The notes beneath the pieces were generated by a model that made no database searches, was not told the DNA's origin, and saw only the letters and a list, made by a program, of their open reading frames with translations. This document shows, in pieces, positions 2,522-33,057 of a stretch of 64,000 nt of DNA. Both the position numbers and the translations under genes were made by a program. Each line of letters starts with the position of its first letter. Position 1 is the stretch's first letter. Origin of the DNA: Promethearchaeia archaeon (GTDB lineage: Archaea > Asgardarchaeota > Lokiarchaeia > Sigyniarchaeales > SOKP01); NCBI GenBank assembly GCA_029856125.1, contig JAHQWJ010000107.1, positions 32,001-96,000 on the forward strand, in the 5' to 3' direction.

Positions 2522-3040
2522 ATGAATAATATGAACGAAGAACCGCCAAGGCCTAGTGGATTACCAGCGGGTTCTATAGCACCTATCTTTGATACTCAAG
2601 ACATCTACGGAAAAAAAATGAATTTAGAAAGCTTGCTTGAAGAATACGACGGAGTGTTGATTGATTTCTTTAGAGGAAACTGGTGAAGTCATTGCAAAAA
2701 ACATTTAACGCTACTAACCGAAAAAATATCTGAATTTGAGAAAAGGAATATTAAACTTATGTCAATAGCAAGCGATAGCGAAAGACTTTTAAAGAAATTT
2801 AAGGAAGAAAATAATTTTGCTGTTGATATGATCTCTGATCGTGGAGCTAAAATCGCAAAAGAATACGATGTTTACTGGTTTGCTCCCGGTGGAGGAGGAA
2901 CTTTAAATGTTAAACAAGCGGTGCCAAGCAAGTTTCTGATAAACAAGGACAGAAAAATCTTATGGACATACATAGGCAAAGATAAAACCGACAGGCCTTC
3001 TATAAAAATGATGACAGACATCATAGACGAAAAAATTTAG
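2522..3040 (+). CDS. Peroxiredoxin-like (AhpC/TSA, thioredoxin-fold) selenoprotein, UxxC motif
   Basis: ATG at 2522 (or 2531) reads ...GLPAGSIAPIFDTQDIYGKKMNL...LIDFFRGNW-TGA(2684-2686)-SHCKKHL... in frame into the 2759..3040 ORF. The TGA sits at the first Cys of FxRGxWCxxC. A SECIS follows. Confidence 0.9.
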
Positions 3041-3042
3041 TC

Positions 3043-3110
3043 CCCCATAAGAATGAATCGTGAGTGAAAATTTTAGACTCCCGACGACGAACCTAGCAAG
3101 GTTTCATGGG
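3043..3110 (+). promoter_or_regulatory. SECIS element (eukaryote-like, 3'UTR)
   Basis: ATGA 3053-3056, stem TCGTGAGT/ACTCCCGA, loop GAAAATTTTAG, GA 3086-3087, side hairpin AACCT-AGCA-AGGTT, closing helix CCCAT/ATGGG. Begins just after the stop codon. Confidence 0.85.
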
Positions 3111-11903: not shown

Positions 11904-12140
11904 ATACTTAGAGAGTAAACATTATTTCATGTATAAGTTAATAAAAATGTTAAGGAATACATAGGACACAATCCTATCGTTCATCTTCCACTATCATTTT
12001 CTGAAAGATTTCAATCTTCTTCAAGATTTATTCCTATTAGGTTTAAAATAATGAGAAAAAGTTTCATTTTCCTTTCCGTATTTTGTTAAAATTATCCTCT
12101 TAAATGTTCCTATATCCAATCGATTTTTCACTTTTTCTCA

Positions 12141-12501
12141 TCAACATCCAACATCTTGTTGTAATTCAATAATAGTATCCGGATATAAATTGAATTTGAT
12201 ATCTTCTCTTATTGGATTAAATTTTCTGTAAAGACCTTGATCATCAGGAGCATAAGGAGATAACCCGACATCGTCGTAAATTGTTTCGTCATCCAAATTT
12301 ACAAATAGTTGCAGATAGTTGTGGATATATCCTTCATGAATAGGAAAAATTTTATTCTCTAAACTTTCACTTTCCATTTTGTCAACCAACGCTAATGTTT
12401 CAATAAAATTTGCTTCATCCTTAATCTCAAGATCGTAGTCCTTTCCACTTTGCAAGCCTTTTATCGGAATTGATATTTTAAATTTTAGCTTTTTGACTCA
12501 T
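12141..12501 (-). CDS. Hypothetical protein ending in Gly-Cys, possibly beta-grasp (MoaD/SAMP-like); one-base frameshift near the 5' end
   Basis: SD-like GAGGTG precedes the ATG at 12501. Removing one base from the A5 run (12490-12494) gives MSQKLKFKISIPIKG fused to the 12141..12455 ORF. Confidence 0.5.
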
Positions 12502-14823: not shown

Positions 14824-14886
14824 TTTGATAACCCGTGCAAGGTAGTCCTCAAGCGTCTAGAATTTATACACTTGAATCATTCAATT
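14824..14886 (-). promoter_or_regulatory. SECIS element (eukaryote-like, 3'UTR)
   Basis: Minus strand: ATGA (14880-14877)-T-TCAAGTGT-ATAAATTCTAG-ACGCTTGA-G-GA-C-T-ACCT-TGCAC-GGGT. Same architecture as 3043-3110 with compensatory stem changes. Confidence 0.85.
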
Positions 14887-14899
14887 TTTATTTTTGGAA

Positions 14900-15406
14900 T
14901 TAATTTTGTAAATAAGTATCAATCGCGTTTAGAATATCTTGAATTTTAGGTCTATCTGTTTTAGTACCGATATAACGCCACACGATTTTACCATTTCGAT
15001 CTATTAGGTAAGTTGAAGGAATTGCGAGCTCACTTTTGATCGTATCATAATCTATTGGTATTCCAAAGACATTATAATCTTTTGAAATCTTTGCTTGTTC
15101 GTCCGCAATTATCGAAAATTTATAGTTTTCCTTGTCGGCAAGCCGTTTTAAAAGTCTTGCTCTATCCGTTGCGATTGACACAAATTTTACATTTCTCATT
15201 TCAATTTCAGATATATCGTTGTTAAGTTTTAATAATTGTTCCTTTCAATAGTGTCACCAAGCACCTCTGAAAAAATCGATTAATAATCCGCGGTATTCTT
15301 GAAGAACATCTGTTGAATTGATTTTAGCTCCATGGATATCAACAGTATCAATCACTGGTGCCATGCTCCCTGTCTTTAAACCTTTTTCAGAATTTGAGAC
15401 AGTCAT
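14900..15406 (-). CDS. Peroxiredoxin-like (AhpC/TSA) selenoprotein with UxxU motif
   Basis: ATG at 15406 reads MTVSNSEKGLKTGSMAPVIDTVDIHG...LIDFFRGAW-TGA(15256-15254)-HY-TGA(15247-15245)-KEQLLKL... in frame into the 14900..15199 ORF. 168 aa, paralog of 2522..3040, followed by a SECIS. Confidence 0.88.
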
Positions 15407-18880: not shown

Positions 18881-18904
18881 AGAAAAAAAGAGGGTTAATA
18901 AATT

Positions 18905-19612
18905 ATGTATAAAAAATTAGCCAAATACTACGATTTGATTTATCATTGGAAAGATTACGAGAAAGAAGCCTATTCCATTAAAAATTTAATAAAAAAATAT
19001 AAAAAATCAGACGGCAACCAGTTGCTTGATGTTGGATGTGGGACGGGAAAGCATTTAGAATGTTTTTTAGACGAGTTTTCCTGTACAGGTATCGATATTA
19101 ACAACGAAATGGTGGAGGTTGCTAAAGCTAAATTTAAAGACGCGATTTTTGAACAAGGGGATATGATAGATTTTAATCTTAAAACTGAATTTGATGTAAT
19201 TCTAAGTTTATTTAGCTCAATCGGTTATGTAAAAACATATTCTAATCTAGAAAAAACGATGTTGAATTTTAAAAACCACTTAAAGAAAGGTGGCGTTCTA
19301 ATAATCGAGCCTTGGTTTACTAAATCTGCGTACTGGGTTGGAACGCCCGGCATGACTACTTACGATGGAAAGGATGTTAAAATCGCAAGACTTAATACAA
19401 CAAAAATAGAAGGAGACTTATCAATAATGGAGATGCATTATTTAATTGCTGAAAAAGATAAAGATATTATACATTTTGCCGATACTCATGAATTAGGTTT
19501 ATTTGAGACTGATAAAACTCTTGATTTTATGGAAAAAGCCGGTCTTAAAGCAGAATTTCTGAAAGATGGCTTAATGGAGGATAGAGGGTTGTTTATCGGA
19601 GTAAAATTGTAG
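18905..19612 (+). CDS. Class I SAM-dependent methyltransferase (TylM1/DesVI-like)
   Basis: YYDLIY..KDY, LLDVGCGTG.H, LFSSIGY, IEPWF, RGLFIG. Confidence 0.8.
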   Translation: MYKKLAKYYDLIYHWKDYEKEAYSIKNLIKKYKKSDGNQLLDVGCGTGKHLECFLDEFSCTGIDINNEMVEVAKAKFKDAIFEQGDMIDFNLKTEFDVILSLFSSIGYVKTYSNLEKTMLNFKNHLKKGGVLIIEPWFTKSAYWVGTPGMTTYDGKDVKIARLNTTKIEGDLSIMEMHYLIAEKDKDIIHFADTHELGLFETDKTLDFMEKAGLKAEFLKDGLMEDRGLFIGVKL

Positions 19613-31761: not shown

Positions 31762-33057
31762 GTGTTTATAATGACAGAAAACTTAGCAAATCAACAAACA
31801 TTCAAAAATTATCTCTTTTTTTGGGCAGGGCAACTATTTTCAATATTAGGGTCATCAATCACTCAGTTTGTAATAATTTGGTGGATCACAATTACTACGG
31901 GAAGTATCTTAATTCTTTCTATAGCGAGTTTTATATATATTTTACCGATGACAATTGTAATTCCGATTGCGGGTGTATTAACGGATAAATGGAATCGTAA
32001 AAAAATAATAATGGCAGTAGATTCTTTTCAGGCTTTGGTTACGTTTATAGTAATATTATTATTTAATTTTGAAATGGCAAATCCCGTTTTGATAATTGCT
32101 ATTAACGGGTTATTGGGCCTTTTTCAAGGGTTTCATATTCCAACCGTAAATGCTATAATTCCAACGATGGTGCCGAAAGATAGGTTAAGTAGAATGAATG
32201 GTGTTAGTTTTCTGTTTTCAAGTTTTCTTCAAACCATAGGTCCTATAATTGCTGCTATGTTATTAACATTTATTCCAATTAAAATAATACTTTGGGTAGA
32301 CCCAATCACTTTTCTAATTGCGGTTATTCCATTGCTGTTCATTAGTATACCCTCAATTAAGACAGAAATTAAACCAGATAAAAAAAATTCATTTATAGAA
32401 GATTTTAAAGTCGGTTTTCGTACATTAAAATTGATTCCAGTTGTTTTAATGATGCTACTAGTGTCAATGTTTGTTAACTTTCTCTGGAGACCGTTTGGTA
32501 TTTTAATGCCCTATTTTGTTAGATTTGATCATTCTGGAACCGCCTCAGAATTAGCTTTTGTTTTAACCTTTATGAACGGTGGTATGCTTATAGGCGCATT
32601 AATTGCCTCGTTTAAAAAACAATGGAAACACGGTATTTCTATTTATTTTGGTGGAGAATTTATCTTGATGGTGGCCTATGCGATTGTCGCCATTTCTCCT
32701 CATGGGTTCTTTTTACAAATGGGAATCGGTGCTGCGATTTTTGGTATAATGGTACCTATTCTTAATACAATATATTTAACTATTATGCAAATTAAAGTAC
32801 CAGCCGATAAAATGGGACGAATTTCATCTATTGATTTTGCTGTCTCGATGGCAATTTCACCAATTGGAGCGATTATATCTGGACCATTAGCGGAATTATT
32901 CGGCATAGCCAACTTATTCCTTTATTGCGCTATATTGGGAATGGTAATTACAATTATATTTTGGTGGATTGCTCACAGACGATTACTTAATAACGATAAA
33001 AAGGAAGAACTTGAAAAAGTTGACATGAGTATTGATAAATCATCAATTGATTTATAA
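31762..33057 (+). CDS. MFS transporter (MefA/DHA3-like)
   Basis: GQ.FS.LGS, GVLTDKWNRKK, about 12 TM segments. Confidence 0.85.
   Translation: MFIMTENLANQQTFKNYLFFWAGQLFSILGSSITQFVIIWWITITTGSILILSIASFIYILPMTIVIPIAGVLTDKWNRKKIIMAVDSFQALVTFIVILLFNFEMANPVLIIAINGLLGLFQGFHIPTVNAIIPTMVPKDRLSRMNGVSFLFSSFLQTIGPIIAAMLLTFIPIKIILWVDPITFLIAVIPLLFISIPSIKTEIKPDKKNSFIEDFKVGFRTLKLIPVVLMMLLVSMFVNFLWRPFGILMPYFVRFDHSGTASELAFVLTFMNGGMLIGALIASFKKQWKHGISIYFGGEFILMVAYAIVAISPHGFFLQMGIGAAIFGIMVPILNTIYLTIMQIKVPADKMGRISSIDFAVSMAISPIGAIISGPLAELFGIANLFLYCAILGMVITIIFWWIAHRRLLNNDKKEELEKVDMSIDKSSIDL

Follow-up and report, generated by a model that had tools for sequence, protein, structure and literature searches.

PrxL genes and their SECIS elements in the window

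We analysed a 64,000-nt stretch of DNA, called the window throughout and lying at 32001–96000 of contig C112, from a 3.69-Mb draft genome (33% GC, 153 contigs) whose nearest relatives are labelled Promethearchaeota and which belongs to the same order as P. syntrophicum. The window carries two PrxL selenoprotein genes. The first (2522–3040, plus strand) encodes a 172-aa protein with a W-U-x-x-C motif (UGA at 2684–2686; AhpC-TSA, E = 7e-22), and the second (14900–15406, minus strand) a 168-aa protein with W-U-x-x-U (UGA at 15256–15254 and 15247–15245; AhpC-TSA, E = 2e-22), a type described earlier as PrxL.1 in the text of Mariotti 2016 (PMC4989117), where PrxL carrying either a single Sec or two are reported. 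Within the PrxL family, the in-frame TGA is kept in 60 of the 102 family genomes with a match. Each gene, with UGA at a Cys position and in a genome that has Sec machinery, is closely followed by a SECIS-like element, the distance from the end of the gene to AUGA being 15 nt for copy 1 and 22 nt for copy 2. The initial annotation had read these two stretches as eukaryote-like SECIS with an AUGA/GA core, an 8-bp stem with compensatory changes, an 11-nt loop and an extra hairpin in a three-way junction. Re-reading the coordinates confirmed both stretches and their AUGA/GA core.

Copy 1 as a whole (3044–3110, plus strand) folds into a closing helix P1, a kink-turn (k-turn), a stem P2 and a side hairpin P3. 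Its core spans 3051–3088, with AUGA at 3053–3056, GA at 3086–3087, tandem G.A pairs, a G3051–C3088 pair and a 3-nt A-A-U bulge. P2 (3058–3065/3077–3084) carries an apical loop of 11 nt (3066–3076) with a run of A at its 5′ side and AG at its end. It is followed by P3 (3089–3104), with the loop AGCA (3095–3098), and P1 (3044–3048/3106–3110) closes the junction in the minimum-energy fold. The core of copy 2 spans 14845–14882 on the minus strand (AUGA 14880–14877, GA 14847–14846), again with a loop of 11 nt, and its P3 folds at 14831–14843 with the loop UGCAC. An 8-bp stem is present in copy 2, where 8/8 pairs form; in copy 1 it is 7/8, with one U-C mismatch. Folding z-scores of single elements are weak (−0.5 to −1.6), so the case for the structure rests on comparative evidence. 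Contigs from RNA runs touch the PrxL coding region and leave the SECIS element uncovered.

The core itself is known. The lokiSECIS of Mariotti 2016 is defined in the text (PMC4989117) by AUGA, a 9-bp stem, an 11-nt loop that opens with adenines and closes with G, and GA/AA after the stem. Both copies agree with this definition, having AUGA directly 5′ of the stem, GA right 3′ of it and 29 nt from AUGA to GA (9-bp stem region plus 11-nt loop), which supports the eukaryote-like reading of the initial annotation. lokiSECIS is the same structure as the Asgard type I eSECIS-like structure of Huang 2024 (PMC11227280), where the text models only the core, upper stem and apical loop and describes the 3′ side as an ‘internal loop and lower stem’ without highly conserved nucleotides; the text of a 2026 review (PMC13188914) repeats the same models. 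At gathering score, Rfam matched nothing in the window; for copy 1, none of its SECIS families came up at E ≤ 10. Judged by their sequence, the two elements are almost certainly functional SECIS that recode UGA to Sec in the upstream PrxL genes.

By sequence, the core contains a standard k-turn. The R-A-U bulge is found in 156/163 elements, and the −1 pair is G-C in 158/163, A-U in 4 and C-G in 1; a tree-aware test on 103 elements gave no significant covariation for this pair. The helix below the k-turn is just 1–3 bp long and frequently has a mismatch at −2. In the apical loop, three A columns and the last G are invariant in 103 sequences, an invariance partly imposed by the filter.

Sec machinery of the source genome

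The genome encodes SecS, a PSTK-like protein and two Sec-type SelD, the latter in tandem (contig C24:349–2903, L115), each followed by a type II SECIS with P3. No EFSec and no tRNA-Sec were found in the 153-contig draft. EFSec was found in five relatives, and efSec adjoins secS in Freyarchaeum and in a complete 2.8-Mb genome (L210, L211); as secS lies at a contig end here, efSec may sit in an assembly gap. A selB match on contig C138 was ruled out as EFSec, being EF-1alpha. The Rfam tRNA-Sec model gave only weak 84-nt matches (about 30 bits, against a cut-off of 47), three of which cluster on contig C84:111342–116233 (L001, L002). The L7Ae family is represented by only two ORFs, of 134 aa each.

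Conservation of the side hairpin

P3 is a stem of 3–6 bp that starts about 1–4 nt 3′ of the k-turn GA, with a loop in which an invariant G is followed by a pyrimidine (G-Y). Using a filter for the core only, we found 12 matches over the 3.7-Mb genome; 12/12 have P3 with the G-Y loop, and 12/12 sit behind an in-frame-UGA ORF. For PrxL, a protein search found 53 genes, of which 47 pass the core filter. P3 stands behind 46/47 of these protein-selected cores, while shuffles gave a mean of 12 and a maximum of 20, and the genome background is 8.8%. These counts, like those for selD and vhuD below, come from sets chosen without regard to the hairpin. They use an anchored test; a laxer hairpin score gave a genome background of 53% and was abandoned. 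Four distant PrxL-like loci (L041–L044) fail the fixed-length core filter and were left out of the counts; P3-like hairpins were seen by eye in three of these four.

The hairpin is not restricted to PrxL or to one SECIS type. Among type I cores, 164/169 have it. Behind selD (type II), P3 is present in 16/16 UTRs, 13 called by script (one in a shifted register) and three read from folds; the UTRs come from the window's genome, Thorarchaeia, Jordarchaeales, Freyarchaeum, Borrarchaeum, P. syntrophicum and complete genomes of 2.8 Mb, probably of Atabeyarchaeia. In four other families, 17/17 UTRs of TGA-containing vhuD have it (16 by script), and in vhuU it is kept where the element overlaps the coding end. 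The central P3 pair has a median predicted probability of 0.84 in the fold. In the cultured P. syntrophicum MK-D1 (L262, L263), P3-bearing SECIS lie behind vhuU and behind an ORF of about 100 aa with R-G-U-C-G.

Covariation and loop sequence

Covariation was assessed on two alignments. In a plain MAFFT alignment of 46 elements, not fitted to the model, two-sided changes number 6 and 10 at the outer P3 pairs, a signal that collapses in slid controls. The second alignment, of 103 elements partly chosen by the model and aligned to it, was examined by a tree-aware G-test with simulated nulls, our own approximation of R-scape. Out of 3570 column pairs, the ten that rank highest are the eight of P2 and the outer two of P3. 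All eight pairs of the core stem covary, and so do the outer P3 pairs, at E = 0.012 and 0.037 (6 and 3 same-branch changes). The central P3 pairs, CC/GG, hardly vary in the main set, where they yield no covariation signal; they are flipped to GG/CC in 30 elements, and other pairs occur in Thorarchaeia.

The P3 loop is mostly a pentaloop, Y-G-Y-R-A, with an invariant G followed by C in 79% and U in 21%. G-Y holds whatever the stem sequence or gene family, and Jord-, Freyr- and Borrarchaeal loops have 1–4 extra nt on the 5′ side with G-C-R kept. Just 54% of P3 loops fit GNRA, so that the loop as a class is not a GNRA tetraloop. In the tree-aware test, the P3 loop covaries with no position outside P3 and hence gives no pointer to a partner. 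Pseudoknot pairing of the P3 loop with the apical UAG was considered and rejected, being without covariation support.

On this comparative evidence, P3 is very probably real and under selection. The extra hairpin proposed by the initial annotation is therefore conserved and covaries; it is not a local variant, being the normal state of the sampled Asgard SECIS.

An optional closing helix

The closing helix P1 is real as a class by sequence comparison and present in most elements, but optional. Matched flanks have a median of −7.4 kcal/mol against −3.4 kcal/mol for mismatched flanks, and 62% of matched versus 22% of mismatched flanks reach −6 kcal/mol or lower (p about 5e-20, with kin not independent). 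The three-way junction assigned to both copies stands for copy 1, where the P1 duplex is predicted at −8.0 kcal/mol; in copy 2 no P1 was detected (flank duplex about 0 kcal/mol). In the UxxU PrxL clade, 7/8 elements, copy 2 among them, are without P1 yet with P3.

The arrangement recalls the k-junction of Wang 2014 (PMC4005666), in which a third helix likewise lies in the non-bulged strand beside a k-turn. In the k-junction, however, the third helix begins opposite the loop, at the point where the strands exchange, whereas here a G-C pair and 1–3 nt precede it and the closing helix can be missing. Since P3 starts 1–4 nt beyond the −1 pair, the structure is better described as a k-turn beside a junction, not clearly as a k-junction.

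A third element of the window

A third SECIS, which the initial annotation had not listed, lies at 11954–12034 on the minus strand. It was found by a relaxed pattern, the first covariance model having missed it, and has a variant core of UUGA (12014–12011) and AA (11981–11980), a P3 (11977–11961) with its stem inverted to GG/CC, and a P1 (12034–12029/11959–11954). Its homologs have AUGA in place of UUGA, and core and P3 are found behind 15/16 full-length homologs of its gene. The gene, an unannotated candidate selenoprotein gene on the minus strand (12021–12497, with an inferred start codon), encodes about 158 aa with G-C-U-U (UGA UGA at 12143–12138). Full-length homologs have two in-frame TGAs in 31/34 family genomes. 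Fold matches are weak (E at least 0.02) and mostly beta-grasp.

A paralog family with H-A-D-U-U (L061:607–1050, minus strand, on contig C122; L116–L118) has database homologs that adjoin ArsR and an SBF/Acr3-type transporter, and its vicinal Sec residues might bind arsenite. The protein P0112 was considered as a Cys homolog of this family and dropped: it ends in G-C like the C-U-U subfamily of the window and is probably cut at a UGA too, so that it gives no Sec/Cys evidence.

Covariance search and candidate selenoprotein families

A covariance model gave 12 matches at E < 1e-7 in the window's genome, followed by a gap, and had matches in 41/41 family genomes. As a negative control we reused loci from a Pfam FlpD search over the phylum, which gave Cys-type vhuD only; the model had no match in 30 such loci. 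When about 90 matches were traced upstream, they led to vhuD, PrxL, other known genes or new UGA families, with a few lacking a clear UGA ORF in the stretch examined. The expectation that model matches would sit behind UGA-containing genes and might reveal new selenoproteins is borne out, with 0/30 among the Cys-type loci and new candidates found.

Five candidate selenoprotein families are absent from the Asgard families named in the text of the 2026 review (PMC13188914). One is the beta-grasp-like family with tandem U-U, whose genes frequently neighbour ArsR and an SBF/Acr3-type transporter and to which the gene at 12497–12021 (minus strand) in the window belongs; about 100 database homologs end exactly at the first UGA. 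Another is a small single-TM protein with a Gly-rich G-G-U-x-C motif, found at about 20 loci among L144–L202 and, in the window's genome, at about 18900–19090 (plus strand) of contig C50 (L062). Its layout recalls eukaryotic SELENOK/SELENOS. A zinc-ribbon mini-protein of about 37 aa ends in K-UGA-stop in 12/12 cases, where TGA makes up 13% of stops; a SECIS with P3 lies behind each of its loci (L112 on contig C148, L028, L035, L046, L141, L143, L153, L157, L160, L179, L191, L196 and L208), and its C-terminal selenocysteine is a candidate. A 309-aa protein without a Pfam match has U near residue 15 in 6/6 genomes (L114:3533–4459, minus strand, on contig C32; L265–L269; start probably ATA), with a selD-like type II SECIS carrying P3 and P1. 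Two genes from it, on the other strand, is encoded a 366-aa SelB-like protein without the GTPase motif. The last is a small 2-TM protein with L-A-U-G-N-R (L063:653–826, minus strand, on contig C8, and L270), found in two genomes in all and in 1/16 relatives; the −1 pair of its SECIS is A-U, not G-C.

Comparison with known SECIS elements

Compared with lokiSECIS and Asgard type I elements, the position just behind PrxL, vhuD and vhuU is the same, whereas the side hairpin, its G-Y loop and the three-way junction are found here and the models in the published texts end at the core. Literature searches for a junction or side hairpin in Asgard SECIS, covering texts and some supplements, figures apart, returned nothing relevant. 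What is new is therefore P3, apparently a phylum-wide extra domain of a known element that is absent from the published model texts.

The AUGA/GA k-turn core, the apical adenines and the 3′-UTR position are shared with eukaryotic SECIS of types I and II. Unlike those, the stem is shorter here, Rfam SECIS families give no match, Asgard archaea have no SBP2, and the hairpin replaces the internal loop and helix 1 on the 3′ strand (compare PMC4989117). With the methanococcal SECIS the element shares its archaeal 3′-UTR position, and the methanococcal vhuD subtype also has AUGA and GAC/AAC according to the text of PMC4989117; unlike in the methanococcal SECIS, a GAA/A bulge is not needed here.

The hairpin also bears on a published experiment. 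A Loki SECIS element was inactive in M. maripaludis, the predicted energy of the construct being −6.9 kcal/mol in the text of PMC11881835. Core-only elements average −6.6 kcal/mol, while full elements average −16.4 and are never above −10.5 kcal/mol. The energy of the failed construct is thus typical of a core-only element, and from this energy it was probably without P3, in which case the M. maripaludis result is probably no test of P3.

A possible role for the side hairpin

The full Asgard SECIS consists of three modules: the k-turn, P2 with its A-rich apical loop, and P3. The k-turn module comprises the R-A-U bulge, the tandem G.A pairs and the G-C pair at −1, with an optional P1 closing the three-way junction. 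Comparison of sequences establishes this anatomy, how it is conserved and its association with UGA genes; its functional reading, given next, is a proposal. By analogy with eukaryotes, EFSec would read the apical A-run and the k-turn would be folded by an L7Ae-family protein or by Mg2+. P3 may serve as a T-loop/GNR-like module for docking or recognition, with a single specific contact; candidate partners are P2's own loop, the ribosome, EFSec domain 4 and an Asgard-specific protein. It would supply the positioning that SBP2 gives in eukaryotes. According to the text of PMC11881835, eEFSec and SBP2 each bind one of the two conserved features of eukaryotic SECIS, and archaea are without SBP2; its absence from Asgard is also stated in the text of PMC11227280.

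While stem sequence, P1 and SECIS type vary, the loop bases of P3 and its spacing from the k-turn stay constant, as expected of a loop that docks or is recognised and unlike a generic 3′-end hairpin. Going by this pattern in the sequences, P3 is probably needed for efficient recoding, through a specific contact. The account as a whole, a UGA-recoding SECIS of three modules in which P3 is the docking or recognition module of an SBP2-less system, seems to us on balance likely. The suggestion of the initial annotation that the hairpin binds a factor substituting for SBP2 is one candidate; the data agree equally well with a tertiary contact or with docking on the ribosome. A more specific form, in which P3 would be an ancestral RNA stand-in for SBP2, retained by the sampled Asgard lineages that use Sec, that itself anchors the SECIS on the ribosome or EFSec or binds an Asgard-specific factor, and that disappeared once eukaryotes acquired SBP2, is tentative, with a real but lesser chance of being right.

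The main rival is a brace within the RNA, in which P3 stacks on the short canonical helix or docks its G-Y on the last loop G of P2 and holds the k-turn in its folded state, with no dedicated protein partner. The shortness and frequent mismatching of the helix below the k-turn speak for such a brace, as does the loop pyrimidine, always C or U as expected when pairing with an invariant G; moreover, k-turns often mediate tertiary contacts (PMC4005666) and T-loop-like motifs work in long-range contacts (PMC2615604). However, the P3 and P2 loops do not covary, the GNRA fit is confined to about half of the P3 loops, and the P3 loop motif persists in type II and non-Loki elements, in which P2 has a very different length and loop. 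We consider this reading unlikely.

It is also conceivable that P3 and P1 form a transcription-end or mRNA-stability structure that travels with the copied SECIS and has no role in recoding, which would agree with the U-rich tracts behind many elements and with the 161 small hairpins similar to P3 in the window's genome. Such a structure would not account for the fixed spacing to the k-turn and the invariant G-Y across lineages and SECIS types, nor for the persistence of P3 where P1 and the U-tract are lost and its retention in vhuU, and we regard it as very unlikely. Finally, the idea that P3 is a bacterial-type SECIS hairpin read by SelB winged-helix domains, whose SelB-binding loop the short G+C-rich stem with its G-Y loop resembles, is rejected as extremely improbable, three Asgard EFSec (461–494 aa) having archaeal SelB domains and no winged-helix family.

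Returning to the docking or recognition module, the texts of PMC4989117, PMC11227280 and PMC11881835 leave open how archaea link a distant 3′-UTR SECIS to the ribosome without SBP2. P3 redraws the boundaries of the element, and in gene finding the longer model is sharply discriminating. Standing beside the k-turn with an invariant loop base, P3 is a precise mutable target and a pull-down bait, and it occurs in an organism in culture, P. syntrophicum MK-D1. If P3 is indeed a stand-in for SBP2, the published failure of the Loki SECIS in vivo may stem from its missing P3.
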